Below are positions 104-30,533 of a stretch of DNA of 64,000 bases, one piece after another. The DNA lies in NCBI GenBank assembly GCA_944320495.1, contig CALUHR010000005.1:64001-128000 (forward strand), given 5' to 3'. Below the pieces are notes generated by a model. It was not told the DNA's origin and made no database searches. It saw only the letters and a list, made by a program, of their open reading frames with translations. The stretch's first letter is position 1. Every line of letters starts with the position of its first letter. The translations under genes and the position numbers were made by a program. The DNA is from Candidatus Methanomethylophilaceae archaeon (GTDB taxonomy: Archaea; Thermoplasmatota; Thermoplasmata; Methanomassiliicoccales; Methanomethylophilaceae).

Positions 104-120
104 TTGGATGATACATCCAA
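104..120. promoter_or_regulatory. 17-bp palindromic operator (perfect copy) abutting a TATA box
   Basis: TTGGATG-ATA-CATCCAA directly after TTTATATA (96-103) and 6 bp before ATG 127. Confidence 0.8.
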
Positions 121-126
121 CCAATA

Positions 127-549
127 ATGACAACAGTCGATGCAGCCAGAGAGCTTACCGAGGCGGAGATCGAGGAGATCTCCGAGAGCGACTACGTGTC
201 CAACGACCGCAGGGACCTCTATGCAGCGATTCGCGACATGAAAGCGGCGAAGATCCTCGCCTACGACAAAGCCATCAAGGAGGGCAGCGTCGACGCCGAT
301 GTCGGAAGACCCATCATATCGGTCCTGAAGACAGACATGATGATATTCGACCTGCTGGCCGTGACCGACCTGGAGGACAGGAAGGACACCTCCGCCACCC
401 TCGAAATGATCAGAAAGATGATCGTCAGCTCCCCCAGGCCCGAGCACCAGGAGGACTACTTCAAGACGCTGACGGACAACGAGGCATCGATGGAGTACAT
501 CTACTCCAAGACCCTCGAGAGGCTCCTGGAGATGGCCAAGGCAGCCTGA
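127..549 (+). CDS. Hypothetical acidic, helical protein (140 aa)
   Basis: Host-like codon bias, TATA box and operator upstream, hairpin downstream; no family recognised. Confidence 0.8.
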   Translation: MTTVDAARELTEAEIEEISESDYVSNDRRDLYAAIRDMKAAKILAYDKAIKEGSVDADVGRPIISVLKTDMMIFDLLAVTDLEDRKDTSATLEMIRKMIVSSPRPEHQEDYFKTLTDNEASMEYIYSKTLERLLEMAKAA

Positions 550-588
550 CAGTTTCAGTTTCCTCCTTTCCATCGTGGTGACACCACG

Positions 589-620
589 GGAGGGGGCCGT
601 CTGACAGAACGGCCCCCTCC
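589..620. terminator. GC-rich hairpin between convergent genes
   Basis: GGAGGGGGCCGT-ctgacaga-ACGGCCCCCTCC. Confidence 0.6.
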
Positions 621-677
621 TACACCGGATCCCCCGGACCCGGCATCTTCCCCATCCTTCTGCTTCTCGGACCGGAA

Positions 678-2573
678 TCATCCGATGACGGACCGGACGC
701 TGTCTGCCAGCCTGTCGGCGTTCAGATCCTCGAGCCTGAAGTACGTACCCTCGAGCTCCTCGGCGAGGCGCTCTGCGTTGTCGAACCTTATGTAGCCGGT
801 ACTGGCGTCGACGACTATCCACCTGACCTGCGGGATCCTGAGGTCCGCGGCCAGCTCCCTCGACTCCTCATTCGCGTCGGCCCCCTCGCGCAGGGGGACG
901 TTGGCGCGTCCGTCGGTGATGAGTACGATGTAGCACGATTCGCCGGGATGCGACCTCGAATACGAGGTCATGAACTCGCCGACGGTGACGAGGGCCTGCC
1001 CCAGGGGCGTCTTCCCGCCCGTGGGGAGCTCCTCCAGCTTGCGGTAGCTGTACTCGACCGACCTGGTCGGCGGGAGCACCAGCTCGGCCGAGTCCCTGCG
1101 GAACGCCATCATCCCTATGCGGTCCCTCTTGACGTAGCTGTCGCGGAGCATCGACAGCACCGCGCCCTTGACTGCTGCCATCCTCCTGCGCACCCCGAGC
1201 GAGCCGCTGGCGTCCACCAGGAACAGTATGGTGCAGCCGGAGCGGCGCTCCCTGACCTTGCGCCTGATGTCCTGCTTCTCGATGGATACTGCGAGGCCGC
1301 CGTGCCGCCTCCCCTTCTGATAAGGCGCGGCGGCGCGGATGGTGGCGTCGAACGCCACGTCGGATACGCGGCCCTCCGGGATCCTGGAGCGGGCGTACCT
1401 GCCCGTGGAATCGCTGCTCTCGGCCATGGCGCGCCTGCCCTTGCGGCTCGACGTGGTGCGTATCATCCTCCGGCCGTCCTGGAGATAGTCTATGACCCTG
1501 AACTGCTCCCCGATCTCGAACATCATCTCGTCGAGCATGTCCCGCAGATCCTGGGGGAGGTCGGGGGGCTCGCCCTCAGGGGGCTCCGGAGGTTCAGAGG
1601 AGTCGTCGCGATCGTCCTGACGGTCGTCCTGCGGCTGCTCCGGCGGCTCCCGGTCCGGCTCCCCCTCCTGGTCCTGCGCCTCCTGCTGCTGGGGCGGCTC
1701 GGGTGGCGGTGGCGGCTGCGAATAGTTCCTGCGGTGGGCCAGGCAGATCATCGCCGCCTCCTCCACGTCCTTCCGCAGAACCTCGTCCCTGCCGTTGAGA
1801 GCGGCGAGCGCGGAGGCGGTCTCAGCCATGGCGATGTCCCCGCGGAACCCGTCGGCCGACACCCTGGCGGCCAGTTCCACGGCGACCCCGAGCAGGTCGT
1901 CCGATATTGTCACCAGCGGGAGGATCCTCTTCGCGCGGTCGATGCCGGCGCGGAGCTCGGACTCCTCGTCCGCGTACATGGCGGCGAACCCCTCCGGATC
2001 ATCGGCGAAGGCCGAGTTCCTGCGGAGGATCTCCTCCCTCCCGCGGACGTCGTCCTGCGGGAAATCGGAATAGGCGCAGAGGTCGAACCTGTCCAGCAGA
2101 TGGGGGCTGACGTCCGTGTCCTGGGGGTTCATGGTGGCGATCATCAGCGTGTCGCAGGCGTACTCCCCCGAGACGCCCTCCCTCTCGACCACCACGCGGC
2201 CGGTGGCGACGCAGTCCAGGAGCGAAGCGAGCATGCGCTGGTCCATGAGGTTCGCGTCGTCCACGTAGAGTATGTTGCCGTCGGCCTCCGACAGGAGGCC
2301 TCTCTGCATGACGGCGCGGCCCTCCCTGATGGTGGCCTCGGCGTCCATCCCGCCGAAGAGCATCTCCTCGGTGACGTTCAGCGGGACGTTGACCACGCGC
2401 CTGCCCGTCAGGTCGCCGGCCGCCCTGGAGAGGACTGTCTTGGCGGACCCGGGTCCGCCGCGTATCAGCACGGTGCGGATGCGGGGGCAGACGGCGGCGC
2501 ACATTATCGCGCGCTTGGAATCGTCCATGCCGAAGACGGCAGAGAACGGGAAGCTCAGATTCCCTTGAGGCAT
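678..2573 (-). CDS. chlD: Mg/Co-chelatase subunit D-like (AAA+ domain, Pro/acidic linker, VWA domain)
   Basis: Degenerate AAA module (GGPGSAKT, LLDRFD), PPPPPEPP linker, MIDAS motif DASGS, GGKTPL, ITDGRAN. Confidence 0.9.
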   Translation of the reverse strand: MPQGNLSFPFSAVFGMDDSKRAIMCAAVCPRIRTVLIRGGPGSAKTVLSRAAGDLTGRRVVNVPLNVTEEMLFGGMDAEATIREGRAVMQRGLLSEADGNILYVDDANLMDQRMLASLLDCVATGRVVVEREGVSGEYACDTLMIATMNPQDTDVSPHLLDRFDLCAYSDFPQDDVRGREEILRRNSAFADDPEGFAAMYADEESELRAGIDRAKRILPLVTISDDLLGVAVELAARVSADGFRGDIAMAETASALAALNGRDEVLRKDVEEAAMICLAHRRNYSQPPPPPEPPQQQEAQDQEGEPDREPPEQPQDDRQDDRDDSSEPPEPPEGEPPDLPQDLRDMLDEMMFEIGEQFRVIDYLQDGRRMIRTTSSRKGRRAMAESSDSTGRYARSRIPEGRVSDVAFDATIRAAAPYQKGRRHGGLAVSIEKQDIRRKVRERRSGCTILFLVDASGSLGVRRRMAAVKGAVLSMLRDSYVKRDRIGMMAFRRDSAELVLPPTRSVEYSYRKLEELPTGGKTPLGQALVTVGEFMTSYSRSHPGESCYIVLITDGRANVPLREGADANEESRELAADLRIPQVRWIVVDASTGYIRFDNAERLAEELEGTYFRLEDLNADRLADSVRSVIG

Positions 2574-3580
2574 GTCTCCAGCTCCTCGGGGTCGAAGGCC
2601 TCCTCCTCGAACGGCCTGCGCCTCATGCGGTGCGAGAGGACCGGGGTCGCCACGGCCCGGATGTCGTCCGCGATGACGGCAGGACGGCCCTCGAGGGCGG
2701 CGTTGGCCCTGGCGGCCTTGAGCATGGTGATGTCCGCGCGGTGCCCGTCGACGCCGAAGTGCGTGGTGATGTTCACGACAGCCTCAAGGACAGGGTCCGG
2801 TATCGAGACCTTGGACAGGGCGGCCCTGGCGTCGGAGATCCTGCGGCGCATGGATTCCGTCTCCTCCCTCAAGGATGCCGTGTACCCCTCCGGGTCGGAG
2901 TCGAAGGCGAGCCTTCTGCGGACGACCTCCATCCTCTTGGCGGTGTCCCTGTCCCCGCGCACGTCCACAGACAGGCCGAACCTGTCCAGGAGCTGGGGCC
3001 TGAGCTCGCCCTCCTCCGGGTTCATGGTGCCGACCAGGACGAACCTCGACGGATGCGAGAACGACACGCCCTCCCTCTCCACGTAGTTCACGCCCATGGC
3101 GGCGGAATCCAGCAGGGGGTCGACAATGTGGTCGTCCAGAAGATTGACCTCGTCCACGTAGAGCAGGTTGCCGTTGGCCTGCGCCAGGACGCCTGGCTCG
3201 AACCTCTTCTCGCCGGTCTTGAGGACGTGCTCTATGTCCAGCGTCCCGGACACGCGGTCCTCGGTGGCGCTGAGCGGGAGCTCGACGACCCTCATCGGGA
3301 CCTCCTCCGAGGGGAGCGGGCCCTCGGAAGCGAATCTCTCCGCGCAGTAGGGGCAGAGCCTGTCGGTCCTCGACGGATCGCATCCGAAAGGGCATCCCGG
3401 CACGGCGGTCCTAGACGGGAGGATCTGGGACAGCGACCTGACCGTGGTCGATTTGGCGGTGCCCTTCTCCCCCTTGATGAGGGCCCCGCCGATGCCCGGG
3501 TCGACGATGTTGAGGAGCAGGGCCCTCTTCATGTCCTCCTGGCCGACAATCGAAACGAAAGGGAATAGCAGCTTATCCAT
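2555..3580 (-). CDS. chlI: Mg/Co-chelatase subunit I-like AAA+ ATPase
   Basis: FPFVSIVGQEDMK, GEKGTAKST, LYVDEVNLL, GELRPQLLDRFG; start taken at ATG 3580 (MDKLLFPF). Confidence 0.9.
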   Translation of the reverse strand: MDKLLFPFVSIVGQEDMKRALLLNIVDPGIGGALIKGEKGTAKSTTVRSLSQILPSRTAVPGCPFGCDPSRTDRLCPYCAERFASEGPLPSEEVPMRVVELPLSATEDRVSGTLDIEHVLKTGEKRFEPGVLAQANGNLLYVDEVNLLDDHIVDPLLDSAAMGVNYVEREGVSFSHPSRFVLVGTMNPEEGELRPQLLDRFGLSVDVRGDRDTAKRMEVVRRRLAFDSDPEGYTASLREETESMRRRISDARAALSKVSIPDPVLEAVVNITTHFGVDGHRADITMLKAARANAALEGRPAVIADDIRAVATPVLSHRMRRRPFEEEAFDPEELETCLKGI

Positions 3581-3593
3581 GGGTCTCACTAAG

Positions 3594-3610
3594 TTGGATG
3601 ATATATCCAT
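3594..3610. promoter_or_regulatory. 17-bp operator upstream of chlI
   Basis: TTGGATGATATATCCAT; minus-strand TATA TTTATATC at 3617-3624. Confidence 0.75.
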
Positions 3611-3746
3611 CTATTTGATATAAACCAGACGTATGGATTATTATTGACATATTCCAGAATGTCCCCCGAGAGGATTGGAACAATCATTCAAAATCAGAGC
3701 CAGCATATCCAGAATCACAATCGCGAGAGGGTAGGATTTATATCAA

Positions 3747-3763
3747 TCGGATAATACATCCAA
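3747..3763. promoter_or_regulatory. 17-bp operator upstream of cobN
   Basis: TCGGATAATACATCCAA between TATA TTTATATC (3737-3744) and ATG 3765. Confidence 0.75.
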
Positions 3764-3764
3764 T

Positions 3765-6700
3765 ATGCCCCTCAGAATAGTCTATGTCACGATACAGAGC
3801 GTCGATGCATCCTTATTCCGCGAACCGGCGGAGGAGGTGTGCCGTGAGAACGGCTGGGATCTGGACCTGTTCTGCGCGAACGATTCCGACGTAGACGAGG
3901 ACCCGCTGCTGTACCACGAACTGTCACTCAGGACGAAGACGGCCGACCTCGTGCTGGTGAGGGTCATGGCCGATCCGACGAGGATGCGCCGCTTCGAGCA
4001 GTGGGAGAAGGTACTGAGGGAGTGCCCCGGGTACGTGCACGTGTACTCCGGGAACCTGGAGGTCTCCCTGGTCTACCGCGACCTGTTCAAGGGCGACGAC
4101 AGGGAGTACATGAGGCTCCGCGAGTTCGTGAGAGGACGCGGGGCGGAGAACGACCGCGCCATCGTGCAGTGGGTGCACCATGCGGTCACCGGCGAGGGGG
4201 ACGTGCCGGACCCGGTGGAGCATCGCCCCAACGGCATCTACCACCCGGACTTCGATAGGGACGTTACGCTGGACGAGTATCTGGCACATCTGGACCCCTC
4301 CAAGCCCACCATCGGCCTGATGTTCACCGCCAACCTCTGGATCTACGGGAACCTGGAGCACATCGACGCGTTCATCCGCGAGACGGAGTCCCAGGGCATG
4401 AACATCATCCCGGTTTTCTTCTCGTCGGTGGCCAGCAGGACCGACGGGAACGAGGGGAGCGTCGCCATCGTCCGCGAGTACTTCACCGAGGGCGGGAGGG
4501 GCAGGGTGGACGCCCTCGTCATGGCGACCCCGTTCTCCCAGCTCAACAACTCCAGGGACTGCTCCGGCGTCTACACGCCGGACTGGCAGAACTACTTCCA
4601 CACGCTCACCGACGTGCCCGTGTTCCAGGCGATGTCCGTGTCCGCGCACTTCGCCGACTACGAGGAGAGCGCCGAGGGGCTATCCAAGGGCGACTTCGGC
4701 ATGAACGTCATCTGGCCCGAGGTGGACGGGCAGATAATCACCGTGCCCTTCGCCAGCAACGAGAGGGGCAGGGGCGGACCGAAGGTCTACACACCGCTCC
4801 CGGACAGGATAAGACGCCTCGTGTCCACCGTCGGCGCCTGGGCGAGGCTCAGGCACAAGCCCGCATCCGAGAGGAGGATAGCCATCCTGATGTACCAGTC
4901 CAGGCCGGACTCCGGTAGGATCGGAGGGGCCGCAGGCCTTGACACGATGCAGAGCATCAGGGACATGCTCGAGCGCATGTCGTCGCTCGGCTACACGGTG
5001 TACCACGTCCCGGAGACCTCCAGGGCTCTGACCGACGAGATCCTCGACAACATCACCAACGACCTGGAGTGGTCGTCGGAGGAGAGGGTCCGCGAGAAGG
5101 CCGCCGCCATGGTGCCCATGTCCGACTACGAGCCGGAGTACGGGAGGTTATCCGAGTTCAACCGCAGGCGCATGGAGGAGAGCTGGGGGAAGGCCCCCGG
5201 CACCGTTTCCGTCCAGGACGGCAGGTTCGTCATCCCCGGGATCGTCAACGGGAACGTCTACATCGGCTACCAGCCCCTGAGGTCCTGGGCCGACCAGATG
5301 GAGTCCGTCTACCACGACCCGGTGGTGCCGATGCCCCACCAGTACCTGGCGTTCTACCGCTGGCTCAAGTACGTGTTCAAGGCGGACGCCGTGGTGCATG
5401 TGGGCACACACGGGACGCTGGAATGGCTCCCGGGCAGGAGCCTGGGACTGTCGGGGAAGTGCTTCCCGGACCTGGTCCTGGACTCGATCCCCAACATCTA
5501 CCCCTATGTGATCGACGACCCCGGCGAGGGGATACAGTGCAAGCGCAGGTCCGAGGCGGTGCTCATAGGGCACATGTGCCCCACGATGGCCCGCGCCGGT
5601 TCGTATGAGACGCTGGAGGCGGTCGACGGTCCGCTCCAGGAGGTCTTCAAGAACACCGCCGCCAAGGGCGAGCAGAGGAGGGCGATGGTGTCCGAGGTCC
5701 TGGACGCCGCCAGGGAGGCGGACCTGCTGAGGGAGCTCGGGATACCCGACGGCATATCGCCGGAGGACTTCGAGGGCGAGCTTGGCAGGATCCACGACTA
5801 CATCACGGACATCAAGGACACGATAATCCGCGACGGGCTGCACGTGCTCGGCAGGGCCCCGGAGGGGGAGCTGCTGACGGAGAGCGTCTACTCGCTCACC
5901 CGCGTCAGGAACGGCGACGTGCCGTCGCTCCGCTCCGCCGTGGCGTCAGCCATGGGCTTCGACCTTGACGCCCTGCTGGACGACAGCTCCGACATGACGG
6001 ACGGGGAGCTGAACAGCGTCATCCTGGACAGGGTCGATGACAGGGTCATGTCGCTCATCGCCGACATGCAGGCGGCGGGATACGCGAAGGATGGGTGCCT
6101 CGCCCTGGCCGCGGATGTCGGCGATTCGGACGGCCTGACGAAGGCCGTCGTGTACATCTGCGACACCCTGGTGCCGAACCTCGCCCGCATGACGGACGAG
6201 ATGGGGAACATGATGCACGCCTTCGAGGGCGGATACGTTCTCCCGGGGCCGTCCGGCGCGCCGACCCGCGGGAACGCGGACATCCTGCCGATGGGGAGGA
6301 ACTTCTACGGCATCGACCCGGACATCGTCCCCACGAAGGCGGCCTGGGAGATCGGCCGGCGCATGGCGGACCAGATGGTGGAGCGCTACACGAGGGAGAG
6401 GGGATCCTACCCCACGGAGGTGGGATTCATCATCTGGGCCACGGACACCATGAAGACCAACGGCGACGACGTGGCCTACATCCTGTGGCTCATGGGCGTG
6501 AGGCCCGTGTGGTCCTCCAACGGCGGGCAGGTCGTCGGCCTGGAGCCGGTGCCTCTTGAGGAGCTCGGCCGCCCCAGGATAGACGTGACCGTGAGGATAA
6601 CGGGACTGTTCAGGGACGCGTTCCCCAACCTCATCGACCTCATCGACGATGCCGTCCAGCTCATCGCCGGATTGGACGAGGGCGACGAGGACAACGCCCT

Positions 6701-11132: not shown

Positions 11133-11149
11133 TTGGCATATACATCCAA
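11133..11149. promoter_or_regulatory. 17-bp operator upstream of SBP
   Basis: TTGGCATATACATCCAA, 27 bp upstream of start 11105. Confidence 0.7.
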
Positions 11150-12066: not shown

Positions 12067-12083
12067 TTGGATGTATATGCCAA
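12067..12083. promoter_or_regulatory. 17-bp operator upstream of ABC ATPase
   Basis: TTGGATGTATATGCCAA; minus-strand CTTAAA TATA-like element near 12097-12102. Confidence 0.75.
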
Positions 12084-12208: not shown

Positions 12209-12274
12209 TAAAAACCGATATAATAGTAGGACCCATCATCCAACTCACCGCAGGCCGCAGCCTGGGGAGATACC

Positions 12275-17910: not shown

Positions 17911-17918
17911 ACATCCAG
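17902..17918. promoter_or_regulatory. 17-bp operator overlapping the start codon of fusion 1
   Basis: TTGGAACATACATCCAG (14/17 to the perfect copy). Confidence 0.55.
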
Positions 17919-18977: not shown

Positions 18978-19097
18978 TTGTCTCGGTATTTGGGGCAATG
19001 TTCTCCTTATCCCTGGTCGGTCCTCCATAGATTCACACCATGTGAAGTTAAGACCATTGATGGCATTCATACTTGCAAGTGCAACGAGATTGCACGC

Positions 19098-19153
19098 GGG
19101 GGGGGGGGCCGCCCGTTATTGGTCGTCCCTCCCGTCTTCCGTACGGAGGGAAA
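19098..19153 (+). promoter_or_regulatory. G11 tract plus SD-sequestering hairpin leader (copy 1)
   Basis: G11 at 19098-19108; CCCTCCCGTCTTCCGTACGGAGGGAAA before ATG 19156. Confidence 0.6.
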
Positions 19154-19155
19154 TC

Positions 19156-22613: not shown

Positions 22614-22630
22614 TTGGATTATACATCCAA
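22614..22630. promoter_or_regulatory. 17-bp operator upstream of fusion 2
   Basis: TTGGATTATACATCCAA followed by SD AGGTG and ATG 22644. Confidence 0.8.
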
Positions 22631-22643: not shown

Positions 22644-24770
22644 ATGACCAAGGTGGCGATCTACGGCAAAGGCGGGATAGGCAAATCCACGACGGCGTCC
22701 AACATCTCGCTGGCCCTCTCGCGGAAGGGGGCAAGGGTGCTCCAGGTGGGCTGCGACCCCAAGAGCGACTCCACCCGCTCCCTCCTCGGAGGCCGCCCGC
22801 CGGCCACCGTCCTCGGCTACGTCAGAGGAACGCCTCCGCTGGAGAGGAAGCTGGAGGATGTCGTGATGCCGGGAACCAACGGCGTCATGTGCGTCGAGGC
22901 CGGAGGGCCGGAGCCCGGCATAGGATGCGCCGGGCGCGGAATCATCACCACATTCGAGACCCTCTGGAGCCTCGGCATCGACGACCTCGACGCGGACGTC
23001 ACGGTCTTCGACGTCCTCGGCGACGTGGTCTGCGGAGGGTTCGCCGTCCCCCTCCGCAGGGAGAACGCCGACGCCGTGTTCATCGTGACCTCGGGGGAAT
23101 TCATGTCGGTGTACGCGGCGAACAACATCATGAGGGGAATCGTCAACTTCGGGACCGACCGCGGGAGGGTCGCCGGCATCATCCTCAACCGCAGGGGGGT
23201 GGAGGGCGAGGACCGCATCGTCAGGACCCTGTCGGAATGCACCGGGATCCCGATTGTCGCCGATGTGCCCAGATCGGAGCTGTTCAGACGGGCCGAATCC
23301 GGAGCAATGACTGTATCGGAGATGTTCCCGGACTCGCTGGAGGCCTCGATCTACTCGAAGATGGCGGATATGATACTCGGCATCGCGGATGGGACCACGA
23401 GGCTGTACGTCCCGCATCCGCTGGACGACGCCCAGCTCGAAGCCCTGGCCTCCGGCCGCGCCGACATGGGGCCGGGCCGTTTCGCCAGCCGCCGCCCCTG
23501 CTCCGAGAGGGGTTATGTGGGCATCGGCTCCTGCGCCTCCCGCGGGGCTGTCTTCGAAGCCGGGAGGGTCTGCGACATCCCGATCGTGGTCCACGGACCG
23601 GACAGCTGCGGTTACGTCATGTCCCACACCCAGGACGGACACTACCTGGAGGCCCTGGCGTCGAACAGGTTCCTGCGGGCCCATATGCGCAACAACATCT
23701 CCTGCACCGGGATGACCGAGCGGGACTGCATCTTCGGCGGACGGAAGCCGCTGAAGAGGGAGCTGCTCCGCCTCGCATCGGAGGGGCGCCGCACCGCCAT
23801 GGTGGTCACAACCTGCGTCTCCGGTATGATCGGGGACGACGTGGACTCCGTCGTGAGGGAGGTGGAGATGGAGATCCCGGGGATGCGTGTCATCCCGGTG
23901 AAGGCTGACGGGAACCTCACCGGGGAGAGCGAGGAGGGGCGCCTGATGGTCATCGGGGAGTTCATGAACATGATAGAGCCTCATGAGGGGCCAAAAAGGA
24001 ACAGAATCAACATCGTGGACGACACGTTCATGTGGTTCGATTCGGGGAACAACCTGCTGTGGACCGAGAAGCTGCTGAGGATGGTGGGCTCCGAGCCCGG
24101 CGTCCGCCTGTTCGACGACTGCACCCTGGAGGAGCTCCGCTCCTCCGCATCCAGCATCCTTTCGGTACTGGCGGACGATTCGCCAGTGAACGTTCGCATG
24201 GCGAAGATGCTGGAGGCGAAGGGCATGGACGCCCTGCCGGCCCCGCTCCCGCGCGGGTACGGAGAGACCATGGCGTGGATCCCCATGTGCTGCGAGCGTC
24301 TCGGGACCGACCCCGGGCCGGCCCTCGCCAGGGCGGAGTCCGAATACCAGAGCGCGCTGAGAAGGCTCTCGCCGAGACTGTCAGGCAGGAGGGTGGCCGT
24401 CGTGTCGCGTTCGTCCTCCGATCCGGACTGGATGATCGAATGCCTGCAGGACGCGGGCGCGGACGTTGTGTGCTCCGTGTCGTTCCGTGTGGGCGCGGGA
24501 TCCGTGAGGGGGATGCGCTCCAGGTTCGCGGACCACGTCGAATGTAGGAGCGACGTGCCGGTATCGGAACTCGAGATGTTCCTGCTGGACAGGTCCCCGG
24601 ACATCGTGGTCGGACCGGGCAACCTGCTTTCCAATCTGGGAATCAGACACATATCGCCTCCCTCGGAGACGGTGTCGCACAGGGCGTCTGAGGCGTTCCT
24701 TGAGAGGGTGGCGGACGGGCTTGTCCGCAAACCCTCTCCGGGATGGATATCGTGGGGGGAGGAGGCATGA
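22644..24770 (+). CDS. NifH-like Fe protein fused to NifD/BchN-like subunit, paralog 2
   Basis: [34 protein letters not shown]; then [24 protein letters not shown]. Confidence 0.9.
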
Positions 24771-26047
24771 ACCCGAAGCCCGACGGATTCATCGGAGCGG
24801 TGATGGCCGCGGAGGGGGTCTCCAACATGACCACCCTGCTCCACGGGCCGGACGGATGCAGGAAGAACCTTGCCGCGCTGTCCCGCAGCCTGCTCCCGAA
24901 GGGCGGGAGATGCGACCTCAGCACCCCGTTCTATAGGGGATTCCCGGTGGTCCCGTGCACTGGCATCGGACCGTCCGACTACATCTTCGGTTCCGGAGGG
25001 AGGCTGACCGAGGCGCTCGGGTTCGTGGGCGGAAGGACGGAGGGTCCGGTGGCCGTCGTGTGCTCCCCCGGAGCGTCCCTCATCGGGGACGACTGCTCCA
25101 AGGCGATCGCGGACAGCGGGATGGAGGGCAGGGCCGTCGTCATCGGCGAGGACACGATGTCCAGTCCGCTCTGCGAGGCATACGACGCAGCGATAGAAAG
25201 AATCCTCAGATCGCTTGCGCCCCGGGATGGCGAGACGATCCCGGGGACCGTGAGCCTCGTCGGCCTGAGCGTGCTGACCAAGGACTGGCACACCGTGACC
25301 TCCGAGTTCTCAGCCATGTTCGGCATGATGGGACTCGATGTGCTGGCATCGCCCGGGGCCGGTAGCCCCTCGGAAGACCTGCGCCGGTCGGCTCAGGCCG
25401 AGTTCTGCGTGATCATGTGCCCCGAATACGCTCGTCTCACGTCATCATTCTACAAAGAGCGCGGATCGGAGATTGTTTCGCTGGGCCACGCGCCGGTCGG
25501 CTTCGCGGCGACCAGGGAGCTGATCCTCAAAGTGGCCGACGCCTCCGGCAGAGACCGGTCGGCGGCGCTGGAGTACATCAGGGGATTCGAGAGACGCGCC
25601 CGCACATGCATGCTCACCACACAGGAGAACGTGTCCGGAAGGACCTTCAGGCTGGAGGCCGACGCATCGGTCGCGCTCCCCCTGACCAGATGGCTATGCG
25701 ACGACCTTGGCCTGGTCCCGGCGTCCGTAATCTGCCAGACAGGCCTCAGGGCGGCGGACGAGCTGATCGGATATCTTGATGGGATGGGGCTGGGCGACGT
25801 CTTCGGCGTCCCGCCTCGGTCCGAACCGTATTACGCGTTCTGCGACGGGAACACCGCCCGCCTGGAGGAGCTGTCCGGGGTCTGCCGCAGGGGCGTGGAT
25901 ATCGTGTTCCCGTCGAAGCTCAACACGGACTTCCGCCCGTCGCCTGTGATGGGGCCGTCCGGGGCGATGTACCTGCTGGACCGCGTGGTCAATCCGTTCC
26001 CGAACCGACGACCTGGAGGCCGTCCTCGGGATTGTCCATCAGCATGA
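24767..26047 (+). CDS. Nitrogenase component 1-like beta subunit, paralog 2
   Basis: PDGFIGA...LHGPDGC...[20 protein letters not shown]; ATGA coupling. Confidence 0.85.
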
Positions 26048-26792
26048 TGTGGGGACGGCCCTCGAACGTGACGATCTCGCATCCGATTCCGTACACGTCG
26101 CGGATGTTGGCCTCGGTGAGGACCTCCTCTGGCGTACCGTCGGAATGGACCGTCCCCTCGCTCAGAAGGATTATCCTGTCGGAGTAGCGGGAGGCGATGT
26201 TCAGGTCGTGGCATATCATCAGCACTATCATCCCCCTGCTGTGGGCCAGGTCCCTGAGGAGATGCGCCACCCCCATCTGGTGCCTGATGTCCAGATTGGC
26301 CGTCGGCTCGTCGAGCAGGAGTATCCTCGACTCCTGGGCCAGCCCGCGGGCGAGCATCACCTTCTGATGCTGTCCGGCCGAGAGCTCGTTGAAGGAACGC
26401 AGTGCCAGATCATCTATCGACATGAGACAGAGGGTGGAATGTACGATGCGCAGGTCCTCCTCCGTGCGGCGGTTGCCGCTGTGCGGATACCTGCCCATCA
26501 TAACCGTGTCGGCTACGGACATGGGAAACGACGTTCCGGATGAGCACGGCACGTAGCCCATGATCTTCGCCAGCTCACGGCCGGGTATCTCGGAAACGTC
26601 CCTCCCGTCGACCCTGACGGATCCCGATCTAGGCGTCAGGATGCGGTCGATGCAGTGTATTAGCGTGGACTTCCCCACGCCGTTGGGTCCGAGGACAGAC
26701 ACGAACTGAGGGGATTCCACCGAGAACGTCACATCCCTCAGAACATCCGCGTCGCCGTATCCGAACGTGATGCCTTCTACTTCCAATCTCAT
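25989..26792 (-). CDS. FepC/BtuD-family ABC ATPase
   Basis: GPNGVGKST, LSAGQHQ, LLDEPT. Confidence 0.9.
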   Translation of the reverse strand: MRLEVEGITFGYGDADVLRDVTFSVESPQFVSVLGPNGVGKSTLIHCIDRILTPRSGSVRVDGRDVSEIPGRELAKIMGYVPCSSGTSFPMSVADTVMMGRYPHSGNRRTEEDLRIVHSTLCLMSIDDLALRSFNELSAGQHQKVMLARGLAQESRILLLDEPTANLDIRHQMGVAHLLRDLAHSRGMIVLMICHDLNIASRYSDRIILLSEGTVHSDGTPEEVLTEANIRDVYGIGCEIVTFEGRPHIMLMDNPEDGLQVVGSGTD

Positions 26793-27876
26793 GATATCTC
26801 CCTCGGTTCCAGACCTTCCTGTGCTGGGTCACGAGTATGTAGATGAACAGAGGACCGCCGATTATGGACGTGATCACTCCCACGGGCAGACCCGTGGCGG
26901 TTATCTCCACGGCGAGGCAGTCCGCGGCGGCGAGGACGAACGCCCCGCACGCCGCCGAGGCGGGGAGCAGATACCTGTTGTCCGAATCGATGAAGATCCT
27001 CATCACATGGGGTGCGACCAGTCCGACGAACCCGATCGTGCCTGTGAAGCAGACCAGGGTGGCAGTGACCAGAGACACCACGGCTATGGTCACCAGGCGG
27101 ACCGTCTTGGGCCTTATGCCGGAGGATACGGCCAGGTTCTCGTCGCAGGAGAGGATGTTCAGCCTGGCGCTGAGCATGGACAGGAGGGCCACCCCCGCCA
27201 GGGTGGCGCATATCAGGTACGGCAGGGTGTCCCAGGAGACGCTCCCCAGGGTCCCCAGGCCCCACATGTAAACGGAGGCGAAGGTCTCCGAGGAGGCCGC
27301 CAGATTCAGCATGGTGGTAAACGACGAGAACACATACATCACGGCGATGCCCACCAGTATCATCGTGGTGGGATTGGAGCTGCTTCTGAATCCGGATGCG
27401 AGCATGATAACCGCCGCCGGGATGAGGGACAGCACGAACGCGTTGCCTATGGACCCCATGCTCCCGGTAAGGAACGGCAATATCACCACGCCGGCCACCG
27501 ACGCGAGGGCGATACCGAAGTTGGCCCCAGACGATATGCCGGTCATGTACGGGTCGGCCAGGGGATTGCGCAGAGCGCTCTGCATGGCGGCGCCGCAGAT
27601 CCCCAGCCCGGCACCGACGAAGAATACCGCCAGCCCCCGGGGAGCGTTCTTCTCCCAGACCACATACTCATCTGTGGCATTGTCTATCGGGACACCCGTC
27701 AGATGGTCGAAGAACACGCGATACGCCTCGCCGAAGCCTATTTCGTAGGGCCCCAGGGCGATCTCCAGCAACGCCGCGACGGCCGCCAGCACGAGCATGA
27801 TGGCGATCACCAGCCTCTTGCGGCGGATACGCCTGCGGTACGACTCCTCGAAACCCTCGAAGCTCATCGCTGCCAC
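26629..27876 (-). CDS. FecCD/BtuC permease, apparently with a lost stop codon
   Basis: RNPLADPYMTGISSGA, GTIGFVGLVAPH; expected end near 26803 where W-N is followed by CGA. Confidence 0.8.
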   Translation of the reverse strand: MAAMSFEGFEESYRRRIRRKRLVIAIMLVLAAVAALLEIALGPYEIGFGEAYRVFFDHLTGVPIDNATDEYVVWEKNAPRGLAVFFVGAGLGICGAAMQSALRNPLADPYMTGISSGANFGIALASVAGVVILPFLTGSMGSIGNAFVLSLIPAAVIMLASGFRSSSNPTTMILVGIAVMYVFSSFTTMLNLAASSETFASVYMWGLGTLGSVSWDTLPYLICATLAGVALLSMLSARLNILSCDENLAVSSGIRPKTVRLVTIAVVSLVTATLVCFTGTIGFVGLVAPHVMRIFIDSDNRYLLPASAACGAFVLAAADCLAVEITATGLPVGVITSIIGGPLFIYILVTQHRKVWNRGRYHEIGSRRHHVRIRRRGCSEGCDVLGGIPSVRVCPRTQRRGEVHANTLHRPHPDA

Positions 27877-29156
27877 GCCTCCCTGCGCGTACGCATGACC
27901 AGGAGCAGGAACAGCGGAGCGCCGATGAATGAGAGGACCACGCCGACCGGCATCGTACTCGTGGCCAGGATCCGGCTCAGCACGTCGGCGAGCAGGATCA
28001 GCACCACCCCGAGCATCGCCGAGGCGGGTATCACCAGGCGGGTGTCACTGCCGAGTATGAGGCGCACCATGTGCGGGGCTATCAGACCCAGGAACCCGAT
28101 CATCCCCACGAAGCTGACGATGGATGCTGTCACGAACGATACGATTATGAGGCAGATCATGCGGAAGTTGTCGACGTTCAGGCCCAGGGCCTTGGCGTCA
28201 TTGTCGCCCATCATCAGCAGATTCAGCCTGCCGGACATAGCGTAGAGGGCGACGCACCCGACCAGCGTCACCGTGAACATCATCGGCAGGTACGACCAGG
28301 ACGCCCCGCTCAGAGAGCCCACCTGCCACTCATAGGCCTCCTGCATGGCGTCGTCGTCTGCCACCATCATTATGAGCGTGCTGAACGCCGAGAAGATGTA
28401 CGACACGGCCGTCCCGACCAGGATAATCGTGGCTGGGGACCCGCTGCTGATTCTGGAGACGAATATCATCACGCCCGCGGGAATCAGGCTGAAGAGGAAG
28501 GCGTTCAGCACCAGACCGTACTGCCCGATCCCGACCACGGCGAGACCGAGCACGATCGCTATGTTCGCACCCAGCACCGCCCCGGACGATATGCCGGTGG
28601 TGTACGGGTCGGCCAGGGGATTCTTGAGGACACTCTGCATAACGGCTCCTCCCACGGCCAGCCCCGCCCCGGCGACCATGGCCACGAGGGTCTTCGGGAG
28701 CTGGGAGTTCCAGATCAGGATGTCGTGGAACCAGTCGTCCGACCCGGTCTCGTATACTACCCCGCGGACATGCCCGATGACGAGACCGAACGCCTCCGAC
28801 ACGGACAGACCGCTTATGCCGGCGGTAAGCGAGTATCCCGCCAGGACCACAGCGACCGCAGCCAGGGCGGCGATGAACACCGCCTTCACGGTGTTGCCGG
28901 CGCGGTAGTTCCTGACGAACTGATCCTCGGTCCCGCTCTCTGTGAAGGAACGGATGTATCTAGACACCACCCCGGTCCTGTCCGCGTACACGATGCACGC
29001 GAGCACGATGGCGACGAGGGACACGACCGACGCGGTGGCGCATGCCAACACGACGTCGTCGGCCCCGGACTTGGCTAGGGCGGCGACGGCCAGAGCCCCC
29101 GCTGTCCCGATGACGACCACGGAGGCCACCGCGTTCTGGACTGAGCGGGGGTTCAT
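27864..29156 (-). CDS. FecCD/BtuC permease with extra N-terminal TM segments
   Basis: KNPLADPYTTGISSGA, GMIGFLGLIAPH; about 70 extra hydrophobic N-terminal residues. Confidence 0.85.
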   Translation of the reverse strand: MNPRSVQNAVASVVVIGTAGALAVAALAKSGADDVVLACATASVVSLVAIVLACIVYADRTGVVSRYIRSFTESGTEDQFVRNYRAGNTVKAVFIAALAAVAVVLAGYSLTAGISGLSVSEAFGLVIGHVRGVVYETGSDDWFHDILIWNSQLPKTLVAMVAGAGLAVGGAVMQSVLKNPLADPYTTGISSGAVLGANIAIVLGLAVVGIGQYGLVLNAFLFSLIPAGVMIFVSRISSGSPATIILVGTAVSYIFSAFSTLIMMVADDDAMQEAYEWQVGSLSGASWSYLPMMFTVTLVGCVALYAMSGRLNLLMMGDNDAKALGLNVDNFRMICLIIVSFVTASIVSFVGMIGFLGLIAPHMVRLILGSDTRLVIPASAMLGVVLILLADVLSRILATSTMPVGVVLSFIGAPLFLLLVMRTRREAWQR

Positions 29157-29196
29157 GCCTATAGCGAAAAGATGGGGGCCGCGCCCCCGTTTACCC

Positions 29197-30450
29197 TCAC
29201 TTCACGTCCTCGGCCGTGAAGATGAACTGCCCGTCCACATCGTAATCCAGGCCGTAGATGTCGACGAGCCTCTGGTGCCACTGATCGGCGTATCCCTCCC
29301 CGAAGATCTCAGGATAGAGGAACTCGGCCATGTACGCAATCCTCAGGGTCTGGGGCAGGGTGAAATCTATGACACAGAAGTTGCCGTTCTTGTAGGCGTC
29401 CATGCCCTCGATGATGGACCCGTACTTCTCGTAGAGCGCCTGGCGGCTGTCCTCCGTGGAGCTGTAGCCCATGGTGAAGATCCTAATCATATACTCGGGG
29501 TGGTAGTTGAGGACCCAGGTGCTCCTGTCGGCGTCCAGGGGCTGATATCCGGTCCAGTCCGCGACGGTCTTCCCACCGGCGAGCTCAAGGGCCGCAGTGT
29601 ACTGGTCGTCGTATCCGGCGCAGGCGAATCCGCCGTACCACACGAGGGCAGTCTTGCGCTCGGAATCGGGAACAGCGGACAGCTTCTGCTCGATTTCCGC
29701 GAGCATGTTGGTGCACCATTTCGAGTACTCCTGGGACTGCTCGACGCAGTCCACGAGGAATCCGAGAGTCAGGGCGCTGGAGGCGCTCTCGGCGCCGTCC
29801 ATACCGGCAACGCTGATGATGTCCGTGCCCATCTGGGCGTAGAGGTCCCTAGTCTCCTTGGTGATAGCCGTGGTATAGCTGGACTGAGTGATGATGGCGT
29901 CGGGTATCCCGTTGCTCGTCATGACGGTGATGTCGTCCAGGCTGCTGCTGGACAGAAGAGCAGCACCCTCGAAGCTCTGGAAAAGGACGGAGTCGGCCTT
30001 GGTGTAGCCGATGATCCTTGTGTCGTCCAGCCCGACGGCGAGGGCCATGAGCTGGGGCGAGTTGCTGAGGACCACGAATGTGTCCAGGGGCCAGGTCACG
30101 CTCTGAATCTCGTCGATGCCGTCGACGTACCAGACGACGGTCCCGTCCCTGCGGTCGATCAGGTCCTGCACGTATTCGGCGTCGGCGACGTCGACCTTGC
30201 CGTCGCGGTTGGCGTCGCAGAACTCGGTGAGCTCCACGTCGCCGTTGAGGTAGTCATTGATGTAGTCTATGTCCGCCTGGTCGATGGCGCTGTCCATATT
30301 GGCGTTGCCGAAGACCTTCAGATCGCTGCCGTAGTCCACAGTCCCTCCGCCCTCGCCGCCGCCGTCGCGCGTCAGTGTATAGGCTGCGACGACTCCGGCG
30401 ATGACGAGGATGACAACGGCGGCCACTGCGATCAGTTGCTTGCTGTTCAT
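29197..30450 (-). CDS. ABC substrate-binding protein with TM anchor and dockerin-like pair
   Basis: GNANMDSAIDQAD...CDANRDGKVDVAD; upstream of two permeases and an ATPase. Confidence 0.8.
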   Translation of the reverse strand: MNSKQLIAVAAVVILVIAGVVAAYTLTRDGGGEGGGTVDYGSDLKVFGNANMDSAIDQADIDYINDYLNGDVELTEFCDANRDGKVDVADAEYVQDLIDRRDGTVVWYVDGIDEIQSVTWPLDTFVVLSNSPQLMALAVGLDDTRIIGYTKADSVLFQSFEGAALLSSSSLDDITVMTSNGIPDAIITQSSYTTAITKETRDLYAQMGTDIISVAGMDGAESASSALTLGFLVDCVEQSQEYSKWCTNMLAEIEQKLSAVPDSERKTALVWYGGFACAGYDDQYTAALELAGGKTVADWTGYQPLDADRSTWVLNYHPEYMIRIFTMGYSSTEDSRQALYEKYGSIIEGMDAYKNGNFCVIDFTLPQTLRIAYMAEFLYPEIFGEGYADQWHQRLVDIYGLDYDVDGQFIFTAEDVK

Positions 30451-30516
30451 CTGCTCTCTCCGAATTTGGGTTTCCAGCGGACCGGACGATGACCTCCGGA
30501 TTCTCCGGCCCGTTAG

Positions 30517-30533
30517 TTGGATGTATAATCCAA
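30517..30533. promoter_or_regulatory. 17-bp operator upstream of SBP 2
   Basis: TTGGATGTATAATCCAA, reverse complement of the 22614 site; minus-strand TATA TTATATAC at 30557-30564. Confidence 0.8.

Follow-up and report, generated by a model that had tools for sequence, protein, structure and literature searches.

A palindromic operator shared by fused nitrogenase-like reductases, a CobN-type chelatase and cobalt-supply genes in Methanomassiliicoccales

Gene content of the island

The window (the whole 64,000-nucleotide stretch of DNA analysed here) comes from a Methanomethylophilaceae-like archaeon, a gut-type methanogen, and carries between positions 104 and 30533 an island holding cobN, chlI and chlD, two importers of the FecCD/BtuCD type, an ABC-2 transporter pair and two NifH::NifD-like fusions, each paired with a NifK-like gene. 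All the genes named in an initial annotation of this DNA (cobN, chlI, chlD, two importers and two fusion/partner pairs) were recovered by Pfam and NCBIfam profile searches. The features are as follows, operator sites being given without strand.

104–120: operator TTGGATGATACATCCAA, lying 6 nt ahead of the start of orf140 and immediately 3' of a TTTATATA stretch
127–549, +: orf140, acidic 140-aa protein with an operator in front; family match not found
678–2573, −: ChlD-like AAA+/VWA chelatase subunit (TIGR02031, 425 bits, under the 499.55 cut-off)
2555–3580, −: ChlI-like AAA+ chelatase subunit (ATG at 3580; ORF open to 3610)
3594–3610: operator, 14 nt upstream of the chlI start
3675–3691: weaker operator-like site, two mismatches, in the chlI–cobN divergent region
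3747–3763: operator, 1 nt before the cobN ATG, after TTTATAT
3765–7505, +: CobN, the large subunit of a class I chelatase, a soluble protein of 1246 aa (PF02514, 1217 bits)
7529–8596, −: FecCD permease 1b of importer 1 (start approximate)
8593–9684, −: FecCD permease 1a of importer 1
9726–11105, −: SBP1, with N-terminal TM anchor, dockerin-like Ca-binding repeats and divergent binding domain
11133–11149: operator upstream of SBP1
11190–12053, −: importer 1 ABC ATPase (ATG at 12053)
12067–12083: operator, 14 nt upstream of the importer 1 ATPase start
12227–12243: operator-like site, two mismatches, upstream of the ABC-2 ATPase
12275–13135, +: ABC-2-type transporter ATPase
13132–13905, +: ABC-2 membrane permease
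14522–15784, −: NifK/BchB-like partner 1, with PDG and HGPxGC motifs and one conserved Cys
15781–17910, −: fusion 1, NifH-like Fe-protein domain (residues ~1–285) and NifD/E-like domain with three conserved Cys
17902–17918: operator overlapping the fusion 1 start codon
18019–18733, +: Cys-rich ORF of 238 aa, divergent from fusion 1; family match not found
22614–22630: perfect operator, separated from the downstream fusion 2 ATG by 13 nt
22644–24770, +: fusion 2, a paralogue of fusion 1 that has diverged to 41% identity
24743–26047, +: NifK/BchB-like partner 2
25989–26792, −: importer 2 ABC ATPase
26629–27876, −: FecCD permease 2b (ORF extending beyond the FecCD domain by 66 aa and entering the ATPase gene)
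27864–29156, −: FecCD permease 2a of importer 2
29197–30450, −: SBP2, with TM anchor, dockerin-like repeats and a weak Peripla_BP_2 match
30517–30533: perfect operator, 67 nt upstream of SBP2

The start of partner 1 overlaps the stop of fusion 1 (ATGATGA). CobN passes the cobaltochelatase equivalog cut-off (TIGR02257, 928 bits against 822); no TM segment was found in it, and it lacks a methionine-rich composition (3.6% Met). The dockerin label given earlier to both binding proteins received no match from Pfam or NCBIfam, but weak matches to PDB dockerin type I entries (E = 0.016 and 0.034) fall in their N-terminal 50–60 residues, which carry repeats of the DxNxDGxVD type. As for the reported absence of nifB, nifE and nifN, it holds within the island but not beyond, one NifB being found elsewhere in the genome. 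Three features had been overlooked: the ABC-2 ATPase/permease pair (12275–13905, +), the neighbour most strongly conserved beside the fusion in relatives; the Cys-rich ORF at 18019–18733 (+), of which a homologue occupies the same position in ISO4-G1; and the extension of the cluster about 16 kb beyond the upstream edge of the window, as far as cbiMNQO and another ABC-2 pair.

The fused nitrogenase-like reductases

Within the nitrogenase-like superfamily, the fusions group as a clade of their own, to which NifDK/EN, BchNB/YZ, CfbD and methylthio-alkane reductase do not belong. In a phylogenetic tree they also stand apart from another clade, made up of NFL pairs without an assignment (Pleomorphomonas, Selenomonas and others), that may hold Mar- or Isr-like systems; the subunits lie outside every characterised family (CfbD, MarD, Nif, Bch). 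The best NCBIfam profile of the H domain is CfbC (325 and 308 bits, for a cut-off of 402). The fused architecture itself was already known, having been noted in 2012 (Dos Santos 2012; Borrel 2014; Padalko 2024).

The NifH domain retains its P-loop together with the two cysteines of the cluster. In the D domain, three cysteines are invariant and occupy the positions of NifD C62, C88 and C154, and the K partner possesses a single invariant cysteine, located within HGPxGC. Judging from these residues, the predicted cluster site is DPOR/COR-like (3-Cys + 1-Cys), and the FeMo-co cysteine is missing. Such a site does not by itself prove a tetrapyrrole substrate, since isethionate reductase is also predicted to have a simple [4Fe-4S] cluster (PMC13474568).

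A conserved operator

The palindrome TTGGAT-N5-ATCCAA is matched ten times in the window at up to two mismatches, against 1.6 matches expected, and none of 100 shuffles reached ten. Every match lies inside 104–30533, and the shared palindrome previously described at the 5' ends of these genes is confirmed; all ten sites either overlap the start codon or stand between it and an A/T-rich TATA-like stretch. Elsewhere in the same genome, operators precede cbiMN-cbiQ (two sites), the divergent cbiD/tetrapyrrole-methylase pair and sirC-hemA-hemB, and they are again found before sirC-hemA and cbiMN-cbiQ in G003, a member of another family. Four relatives display 29, 23, 11 and 20 sites, against 0–2 with a reversed-pattern control, and the operator before the fusion genes is kept in ISO4-G1, L012, L013, L015 and L016, as well as in G002 and G004. 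This conservation of the operator across Methanomassiliicoccales is a new finding, and it upholds the co-regulation proposed for the island genes.

When searched at up to two mismatches, feoB/dtxR, the separate canonical cfbC-cfbA-cfbD cluster of this genome and cobA yielded no operator, and the nucleotide-loop/salvage genes cobS, cbiZ, cbiB and cobD (59.5–63.5 kb in the window) are likewise without one. The transporter of the regulon includes CbiN, a cobalt-type component. In ISO4-G1, perfect operators also precede the genes of TFB, the NiFe-hydrogenase large subunit, Usp and others; with a regulon this broad, the effector could differ from B12. A double zinc-ribbon protein of 145 aa is the best candidate for the repressor, and a conserved operator stands before the gene that encodes it; no family match to an HTH was found in it, and a putative HTH can be read from its sequence.

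Synteny and phyletic distribution

In other Methanomassiliicoccales too, the reductase genes lie in synteny with those of the chelatase and importers. ChlI-ChlD-CobN-isochorismatase-ABC2-ABC2-fusion-K lie on one strand in L002, L017 has the order CobN-fusion-K, and L014 the order SBP-ATPase-fusion-K-FecCD-FecCD. The fusion partner K was retrieved from 21 of 61 Methanomassiliicoccales genomes, all 21 being CbiD-positive, and CobN occurs in 19 of these versus only one of the 40 others. When the two families in which K was found are considered (30 genomes, all CbiD-positive), CobN is detected in 19/21 genomes with K versus 1/9 without, and inside three genera CobN and K vary together. In 12 CbiD-positive Methanomassiliicoccales, the fusion was not found. 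The subunits fit no characterised family, and their association with the chelatase and importers extends to other genomes; the observation made in the initial annotation is confirmed, and its interpretation is supported in part.

The cassette in bacteria

A scan for the K partner returned 354 species loci, 80 of which were kept, and the fused H::D gene lies directly before the K gene in 79 of them. The family is common in non-methanogenic Clostridia. A cobalamin riboswitch is present within 3.2 kb of the cassette in 9 of 62 bacterial loci, and controls the fusion directly in only two: it stands directly upstream on the same strand in L021, and heads the operon containing the fusion in L151. 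The divergent riboswitch-controlled neighbour in L144 is a CobA/BtuR adenosyltransferase, a family which also adjoins the cassette in L147 and L214, and in L141 an unassigned gene of 319 aa comes after the riboswitch, with a DUF4430/SLH surface protein next. Outside the riboswitch-controlled loci, conserved neighbours of the bacterial cassette were not found. In L185, the gene immediately preceding the fusion encodes a Cys-rich small protein with PF04071, a domain otherwise fused to archaeal CbiH; this family also neighbours the fusion in L192 and L193.

CbiD was detected in 25 of 30 fusion-bearing bacterial genomes; in the other five, including E. minutum (a single-record genome), neither CbiD nor CbiB was found. 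Only 3 of the 30 possess CobN. The bacterial fused enzyme therefore occurs without CobN, which indicates that the coupling to a chelatase is lineage-specific.

A possible role in cobamide supply

We consider, with a probability of about 0.5, that the island is the larger part of a cobamide-supply regulon, and that the fusions are ATP-driven reductases of a cobalt tetrapyrrole; we infer the effector, regulator, substrate and reaction as follows. In each operon, a repressor would bind the palindrome, downstream of the TATA box and ahead of the start codon, and a shortage of corrinoid or cobalt would presumably free it from the operator. Derepression would turn on the uptake of cobalt (cbiMNQO, a short way outside the window on its upstream side) and the making of tetrapyrroles and the corrin ring (sirC-hemA-hemB, cbiD and methylase). 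It would also turn on the class I chelatase CobN-ChlI-ChlD, two importers of the BtuCDF class whose binding proteins are tethered to the surface, the ABC-2 transporters, and the two paralogous reductases, which belong to a distinct and widespread clade of nitrogenase-like enzymes. In these reductases, the fused Fe-protein domain would use ATP to drive electrons of very low potential through an inter-subunit [4Fe-4S] cluster of the DPOR/COR type, whose fourth ligand would come from the K-like partner, to the bound cobalt tetrapyrrole. In the preferred step, which would follow chelation or import, a corrinoid would be reduced from Co(II) to Co(I) to feed an adenosyltransferase, the enzyme being a functional analogue of CobR; a second option, by analogy with CfbCD, would be ring reduction of a cobalt isobacteriochlorin.

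The Co(II)/Co(I) couple of base-off corrinoids has one of the lowest potentials in biology, and its reduction is elsewhere ATP-driven (RamA/RACE). In the late-insertion pathway, chelation by CobN is directly followed by reduction by CobR, then adenosylation by CobO, an order that matches the contexts observed here, i.e. CobN in archaea and CobA in bacteria. Known adenosyltransferases get by with flavodoxin-level reductants, so that an ATP-driven cobalt reductase is not strictly required. One DNA switch would govern chelatase, importers, exporter and fusions together with cobalt uptake and B12 ring synthesis, giving this uncharacterised reductase family its first testable link, to B12 metabolism.

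The initial annotation had instead proposed a pathway that imports environmental tetrapyrroles or metal chelates, reduces them and removes or replaces the metal. Spelled out, such a model would have metallo-tetrapyrroles such as haem imported and ring-reduced, CobN-ChlID then acting as an HmuS-like de-chelatase or swapping the metal to harvest iron, cobalt or nickel, and the ABC-2 system exporting the spent macrocycle. Ring hydrogenation does weaken the hold of porphyrins on metals, two paralogous reductases are reminiscent of DPOR then COR, and importers, chelatase, reductases and exporter are co-regulated and syntenic. HmuS, a homologue of CobN, has been proven to de-chelate haem in gut Bacteroides, and what its archaeal counterparts do is called unclear (PMC12583661). 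However, the regulon (cbiMNQ, cbiD, sirC-hemA) indicates cobalt/cobamide supply rather than iron, haem or general metal-chelate salvage, feoB and dtxR lack the operator, CobN scores as a cobaltochelatase without the architecture of HmuS, and bacteria hold the fused enzyme without CobN; removal or replacement of a metal is not supported, and such a salvage appears unlikely. Riboswitch control would also fit fusions acting as B12-independent substitutes for a B12-dependent reaction, or as non-tetrapyrrole enzymes like Mar/Isr, that are repressed by B12 as metE or nrd genes are. The genome of L021, where the riboswitch stands directly upstream of the fusion, showed neither CbiD nor CbiB, bacterial cassettes stand solitary in varied contexts, and the characterised Group IV NFL enzymes cut C–S bonds (PMC13474568). 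This is rendered improbable by the tight synteny of the archaeal fusion with CobN and corrinoid-type importers, its co-variation with CobN, the corrinoid-handling nature of the neighbours CobA and DUF4430, and a clade position apart from the possible Mar- and Isr-like pairs; no candidate B12-dependent counterpart was identified.

Fusions that reduce the ring while corrin is being made anaerobically and de novo, e.g. from cobalt-factor II/III to a cobalt-precorrin before CbiH, would parallel the action of CfbCD on Ni-sirohydrochlorin diamide. Such a role is consistent with an H domain nearest to CfbC, with CbiD in 21/21 fusion-bearing Methanomassiliicoccales and 25/30 bacteria, with an operator also governing cbiD/methylase and sirC-hemA, and with the PF04071 neighbours, yet we hold it to be very unlikely, as it leaves the tie to importers and CobA unexplained and sits badly with the 12 CbiD-positive archaea in which no fusion was seen and the five fusion-bearing bacteria in which neither CbiD nor CbiB was found. 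Service in nickel/F430 metabolism (a modified F430, or salvage of a nickel tetrapyrrole) seems extremely unlikely, even though the genes belong to a methanogen, the H domain scores best with the CfbC profile and the ISO4-G1 NiFe-hydrogenase gene carries the operator: the canonical cfbC-cfbA-cfbD cluster is separate and without operator, the regulon transporter has the cobalt-type CbiN, and the family is common in Clostridia that are not methanogens.

Comparison with known systems

The proposed cobalt-tetrapyrrole reductases resemble DPOR (BchLNB) and COR (BchXYZ) in combining an ATP-dependent Fe-protein with a heteromeric D/K-like catalytic component, in the predicted inter-subunit [4Fe-4S] cluster (three D-like Cys, one K-like ligand, FeMo-co ligands absent) and, in Methanomassiliicoccales, in their coupling to a class I chelatase (CobN/BchH + I + D), as in chlorophyll synthesis. 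The K-like fourth ligand is a Cys in the fusion system; it is a Cys of BchZ in COR and an Asp of BchB in DPOR. However, the fusions score far below cut-off on every BchL/X/N/B/Y/Z equivalog and form a separate clade, their Fe-protein is fused to the D subunit, their hosts are non-phototrophs, and their context is cobalt/cobamide, not magnesium. CfbCD, the Ni-sirohydrochlorin a,c-diamide reductive cyclase of F430 synthesis, offers the closest Fe-protein profile, exists in the same organism, has a simple [4Fe-4S] cluster and acts on a metallo-isobacteriochlorin, but the fusions stay under the CfbC cut-off of 402 and reach only 27 bits with the CfbD model (cut-off 268). CfbD is a short, unfused homodimer without K partner, and this genome encodes its own CfbC and CfbD, the latter in a distinct long-branch clade. 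MarHDK and other Group IV NFL systems are also nitrogenase-like H + DK enzymes of anaerobes, with a similar D fold (TM ~0.6, 9fmg), but similarity to MarD is only 42.8 bits, the equivalent of the L-cluster cysteine is missing, the fusion context has no sulfur-metabolism link, and the fusions are separate in the tree from the possible Mar-/Isr-like clade.

With CobNST/CobN-ChlID, CobR and CobO, the system shares a CobN passing the equivalog cut-off and the proposed order of steps, whereas its host is a strict anaerobe with early-insertion genes (CbiD, CbiJ) and CobR is a flavoprotein unrelated in sequence to the fusions; we know of no demonstrated cobalt reduction by an NFL enzyme. The HmuS system of Bacteroidota likewise associates a CobN-family protein and AAA+/VWA partners with tetrapyrrole uptake genes in gut anaerobes, but HmuS exceeds 1400 aa, is membrane-anchored at both ends and bears a Met-rich insertion (PMC12583661), whereas CobN here is a soluble, CobN-scoring protein of 1246 aa and iron genes lie outside the regulon. 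Finally, apart from a putative protein-bound palindromic DNA operator and the omission of nucleotide-loop genes, the regulon resembles bacterial cobalamin-riboswitch regulons, with cobalt transport, cbi, hem, btuFCD-type importers and cobN-chlID common to both.

Gene content of the locus

The window (62% G+C) encodes proteins whose closest named relatives come from Methanomethylophilaceae archaea and the methanogenic culture ISO4-G1, and it corresponds to C5:64001–128000 of a genome of 1.77 Mb in 14 contigs (C3, C5, C9 and C11 denote contigs of this genome). Gene frames were picked through third-position GC and annotated with Pfam and NCBIfam, which gave the following features (window coordinates unless a contig is named):

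First 30.5 kb, left part: orf140; chlD and chlI, divergent from cobN
Next: importer 1, with two FecCD permeases, a binding protein (SBP1) and an ATPase that is a separate unit
12275–13905 (+): ABC-2 ATPase/permease pair
Next: NifK-like partner 1 and fusion 1 (15781–17910, −), a NifH-like::NifD/E-like single ORF; a Cys-rich ORF
19042–21741: 899-aa protein without family match, with orf143
22644–24770 (+): fusion 2, with partner 2; then importer 2 (binding protein SBP2)
54692–63549: HypF, CobT-like protein, CobS, CbiZ, CbiB and CobD-type aminotransferase (nucleotide-loop and salvage genes), without operator
C5:47811–57080 (7–16 kb upstream of the window): leftward continuation of the regulon cluster, with cbiQ, cbiMN and a possible cbiO, operators at C5:50907 and C5:50939
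C5:55390–57044: second ABC-2 ATPase/permease pair, operator-like site at C5:57080

The inventory of the initial annotation, a CobN-ChlID chelatase, two importers and two fused nitrogenase-like reductases with their partners, is borne out, though the ABC-2 pair, which in related genomes stays with the fusion more faithfully than any other neighbour, was missing from it. A third module suspected at 54.7–58 kb was rejected, the 721-aa ORF there being HypF and not a fusion.

CobN scores 928.4 bits against TIGR02257, above the cut-off of 822 bits, and its partners are of the ChlI/ChlD type, not CobS/CobT. Of the components of a type II (BtuCD/FecCD) importer with a cluster-A binding protein, the FecCD domains have strong Pfam scores (258–280 bits); SBP2 matches Peripla_BP_2 weakly (20.7 bits versus 27.5) and SBP1 has no match. 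Neither binding protein has a Pfam dockerin hit at E ≤ 0.001, and PDB dockerin chains match them weakly (E 0.016 and 0.034). The ORF of the second permease of importer 2 goes on for 66 residues after the end of its FecCD domain, which gives a 164-nt overlap with the ATPase 2 gene (26629–26792).

Fused reductases outside the characterised families

Both fusions contain a complete NifH-like domain with a P-loop, in which the cluster cysteines C95 and C130 are invariant in 17 homologues, and a NifD/E-like domain with three invariant cysteines (C304, C329, C397) at the positions of NifD C62, C88 and C154. The partners have a single invariant cysteine, located in HGPxGC, plus a PDG motif. At the position of the nitrogenase cofactor ligand (NifD Cys275/NifE Cys250), fusion 1 has a serine by NifE alignment, and the family consensus has no cysteine. 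Because the trio of the D domain and the lone partner cysteine are invariant and the cofactor cysteine is missing, a cluster site made of three cysteines from the D domain and one from the K-like subunit is predicted across the subunit interface. COR has this same arrangement, whereas in DPOR an aspartate replaces the fourth cysteine; the inter-subunit [4Fe-4S] ligand pattern of DPOR/COR type suggests a similar way of working, not membership of either family.

No NCBIfam equivalog cut-off is reached by the fusions or their partners, and all D and K models score below 70 bits. Indeed, the Fe-protein domain stays below the CfbC model (NF033200: 325.6 bits for fusion 1 and 307.7 for fusion 2, cut-off 402), as do the D-like domains for CfbD (TIGR03282: 26.6 and 27.8 bits, cut-off 268). 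CfbD is moreover a short homodimer without K partner, unlike the fusions, and a separate CfbD is encoded at C9:131.7 kb. The Nif models (nifH 316 < 394; nifD 51 < 654; nifE 67 < 505; nifK 36 < 427) and the Bch models (BchL 188–194 < 345; BchX 183–184 < 331; BchB 42–45 < 490; BchN, BchY and BchZ at most 26 bits) give the same picture. Sequence matches in the PDB are all remote (NifEN 60 bits, NifD 47, BchB 44, MarD 43); for MarD of the methylthio-alkane reductase (9fmg_A, 42.8 bits), the equivalent of Cys270, which together with His429 ligates the L-type cluster, is absent in the fusion. In Foldseek, the D-domain model (pLDDT 82) matches NifD, VnfD, NifE and MarD alike (TM 0.6–0.69, 16–22% identity), so that the fold does not discriminate and the idea of a closer fold to any one of them was dropped.

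The own genome also encodes a NifB (C11:760–1965; 431 bits, above the family cut-off), yet it is devoid of NifDK/EN, which is in line with the report of NifB as universal, for reasons unknown, in methanogens (bioRxiv 10.1101/2023.10.20.563283). The fusions were considered as takers of the L-cluster since the genome has NifB but no nitrogenase; this candidate was dropped, the Cys275 equivalent being Ser/Ala. The Oxidored_nitro proteins that the genome does have lack the L/M-cluster cysteine.

A maximum-likelihood tree was computed with an IQ-TREE quick search (LG+G4) for 93 domains of the D- and K-like types; its references comprised NifDKEN (five genomes), BchN/B/Y/Z (one Chlorobiales genome), two CfbD, three additional Pleomorphomonas systems and further sequences. 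The D domains of the fused family form one clade (SH-aLRT 98) and the partners another (SH-aLRT 100), both apart from every reference group. The subunits accordingly lie outside the NifDK/EN, BchN/B/Y/Z and CfbD groups, in a tree that is a quick search with several long branches and holds no verified Mar or group VI sequences. Both paralogues of the window belong to a Thermoplasmatota subclade, where fusion 1 groups with the homologous loci L001 and L002 and fusion 2 branches deep.

The family is widespread. A scan of GTDB species genomes with the partner protein retrieved 354 loci, which puts the clade in at least 354 species-level genomes of gut and sediment anaerobes, mostly Clostridia and Coriobacteriia, plus single MAG contigs labelled Bacteroidaceae and Patescibacteria; members from Methanosarcina (L022) and Myxococcota (L023) came from a fusion-based scan. 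A fusion of about 735 aa lies directly ahead of a partner of about 430 aa in 79 of the best 80 bacterial loci. Since the Myxococcota member falls inside the fused clade and group VI nitrogenase-like enzymes (Elusimicrobia type, a clade sister to group V) are reported in Myxococcales too (10.1101/765248), the two groups may overlap. The architecture, Fer4_NifH then Oxidored_nitro in one ORF followed by a second Oxidored_nitro gene, matches the fused NifH::NifE-like type with a NifN-like second gene that Dos Santos et al. 2012 (PMC3464626) mentioned but gave no data for. Borrel et al. 2014 (PMC4153887) came across it incidentally, as did Padalko et al. 2024 (PMC11237513); a 2026 review of the superfamily (PMC13474568) mentions neither fused forms nor a cobalamin link. 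We found nothing relevant in the published literature linking nitrogenase-like enzymes to CobN or cobalamin riboswitches.

Several variants of the architecture were encountered. The Myxococcota MAG encodes an ORF of about 1085 aa (L023:2627–5884) with apparently two NifH-like domains before the D-like domain, a double Fe-protein fusion that has a K partner and a FecCD importer nearby. In a different nitrogenase-like clade, an 813-aa ORF of Pleomorphomonas carboxyditropha (L238:1375–3816) has about 300 extra N-terminal residues before the D-like domain and may be an independent fusion. Two partner genes of Methanomassiliicoccaceae contain one in-frame stop each, a TAG (genome G057, C5:10822–12090) and a TGA (genome G081, C47:22891–24153), which may reflect pyrrolysine read-through, sequencing errors or pseudogenes.

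Association with chelatase and importers

Within Methanomassiliicoccales, the tie of the fusion to the chelatase and importers is strong. Synteny is found in relatives: the layout of the window is repeated in L012; L002 has ChlI-ChlD-CobN-isochorismatase-ABC2-ABC2-fusion-K, all on one strand; L017 has CobN-fusion-K; and L014 has SBP-ATPase-fusion-K-FecCD-FecCD. The partner was detected in 21 of the 61 genomes covered for this order, all CbiD-positive and all from two families. CobN was detected in 19 of these 21 versus 1 of the 40 others, and in 19/21 versus 1/9 within the two partner-bearing families (30 genomes, all CbiD-positive); p-values exaggerate this association, as related genomes are not independent. 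Partner and CobN are present or absent together inside three genera, and at least seven of these genomes have CobN no more than 7 kb away from the partner gene. The CobN, ChlI and ChlD genes of Dialister share one operon with a radical SAM gene and a different, unfused nitrogenase-like enzyme.

In bacteria, any CobN occurs in just 3 of 30 fusion-bearing genomes; a coupling to CobN was therefore rejected there, and the enzyme itself is independent of the chelatase. In Methanomassiliicoccales, it has become part of a module that also comprises CobN-ChlID, importers and the ABC-2 pump.

A candidate cobalt and corrin regulon

The palindrome TTGGAT-N5-ATCCAA occurs at 10 sites in the window (up to two mismatches; 1.6 expected), all within 104–30533 and every one directly 3' of an A/T-rich, TATA-like stretch. 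The site ends 1–14 nt ahead of the start codon of orf140, cobN, chlI, ATPase 1 and fusion 2, overlaps the start codon of fusion 1, and lies 30–70 nt upstream of SBP1, the ABC-2 pair and SBP2. A placement between TATA-like stretch and start is usual for archaeal repressor sites. The perfect operator at 30517 is also 155 nt upstream of the gene of a 1750-aa protein (30680–35932); this protein and the 899-aa one, both large and without Pfam match, are interleaved with the regulon genes.

The operator is conserved. Single copies precede the fusion genes of L012, L013, L015 and ISO4-G1, the last of them perfect, and the fusion gene of L016 has three; four related genomes have 29, 23, 11 and 20 sites with up to one mismatch, versus 0–2 for a reversed-pattern control. 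Elsewhere in the own genome, two sites are found ahead of cbiMN-cbiQ, 13 kb upstream of the window, and others ahead of sirC-hemA-hemB, of two further ABC-2 systems and, within the corrin cluster on C9, of the cbiD operon and the tetrapyrrole-methylase operon divergent from it. A genome of another family (G003) has perfect sites ahead of sirC-hemA and cbiMN-cbiQ, and ISO4-G1 ahead of a CobN, several SBP2-like/FecCD importers and a zinc-ribbon gene. Unrelated genes of ISO4-G1, such as those for TFB, a NiFe-hydrogenase subunit and Usp, have sites as well, so that the regulon is broad; cobalt uptake, tetrapyrrole and corrin synthesis, the class I chelatase, corrinoid-type importers and the fusions make up the core that is conserved.

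At up to two mismatches, no operator was detected in the own genome near either feoB or the dtxR beside one of them, near the cfbC-cfbA-cfbD cluster or cobA, or at cobS-cbiZ-cbiB-cobD, which occupy the window's right end. An iron regulon was rejected on account of feoB and dtxR.

A 145-aa protein with two zinc ribbons (gene at C3:46109–46546, in the stretch C3:46081–46546) has a perfect operator 11 nt ahead of its ATG, and the same arrangement recurs in ISO4-G1 (L111). By our own reading of its sequence, outside any family match, this protein likely contains an HTH, and it is a candidate for the repressor that governs the regulon, with autoregulation of its own gene.

The link to B12 in bacteria

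The fusion of a Peptococcaceae genome (L021) has a cobalamin riboswitch 166 nt upstream on its own strand, and in L151 one heads an operon of a Diphthami_syn_2-like gene, fusion, partner and peptidase S51. Altogether, 9 of 62 loci have a riboswitch no farther than 3.2 kb away, for about one expected (a rough estimate from typical riboswitch numbers per genome). In L144 its target is a CobA/BtuR adenosyltransferase divergent from the fusion, and the same neighbour family occurs in L147 and L214; in L141 it is followed by a 319-aa gene without assignment and a DUF4430/SLH surface protein. Clustering the flanks of 80 bacterial loci gave no neighbour common to more than six, and a conserved bacterial neighbour set was rejected. 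CbiD is present in 25 of the 30 fusion-bearing bacterial genomes; the five others, among them E. minutum (a single record) and the L021 genome, also lack CbiB.

Proposed function

The data show a nitrogenase-like enzyme that is distinct and widespread, and three independent lines of evidence link it to cobamide metabolism, namely the archaeal DNA regulon, the bacterial riboswitches and neighbours, and the co-occurrence with corrin-synthesis genes. An obligatory step of ring synthesis is unlikely, as the enzyme is present in organisms only able to import cobamides and absent from many producers; a step common to makers and users of cobamides fits better. Within such a step, we favour the reduction of Co(II) to Co(I) in a free corrinoid, since this would match the CobN-CobR-CobO order of the late-insertion pathway, fit the CobA neighbours and justify an ATP-driven, low-potential reductase. 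CobR, which acts between the CobN and CobO steps, would be its functional analogue. In full, the fused enzyme would be the first nitrogenase-like enzyme to reduce a metal centre, by ATP-driven Co(II)-to-Co(I) reduction of corrinoids after CobN-ChlID chelation or uptake and before adenosylation, and the palindrome would be bound by a transcription factor that senses cobamides and replaces the B12 riboswitch in these archaea. We give this combined reading about one chance in four. No B12 riboswitch is known in archaea.

Three alternatives remain beside it. The fusions could reduce the ring of a cobalt isobacteriochlorin; a replacement of CbiJ was rejected, CbiJ being present in the genome. They could also serve a reductive demetallation of imported tetrapyrroles, as the initial annotation had proposed. 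The observation of that annotation, a shared palindrome over chelatase, importers and reductases, is confirmed, and its interpretation as a whole is supported in part. The known de-chelatase HmuS exceeds 1400 aa, with transmembrane anchors at both ends, a Met-rich insertion and a Met/His haem site, whereas the CobN of the locus has 1246 aa, a maximum 19-residue hydropathy of 1.14 and 3.6% Met. Lastly, the fusions could be a B12-independent substitute enzyme. Reduction of corrinoid cobalt remains the favoured reading.

Significance

The 2026 review calls uncharacterised clades the main challenge of the nitrogenase-like field and gene context of little help so far (PMC13474568); here, context, regulation and phyletic pattern give one such clade a bench-testable lead, cobamide metabolism. 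What CobN homologues do in anaerobic archaea has been called unclear (PMC12583661); the CobN of this locus is a member of a cobalt/corrin regulon, and its occurrence varies together with that of the fused reductase. Through this locus, an orphan clade, the archaeal CobN puzzle and the missing B12 regulation of archaea become directly accessible to experiment. The energy metabolism of these methanogens depends on corrinoid methyltransferases, and the conserved operator marks a candidate protein-based regulon in them, the core of which has the gene content of the bacterial cobalamin-riboswitch regulon.
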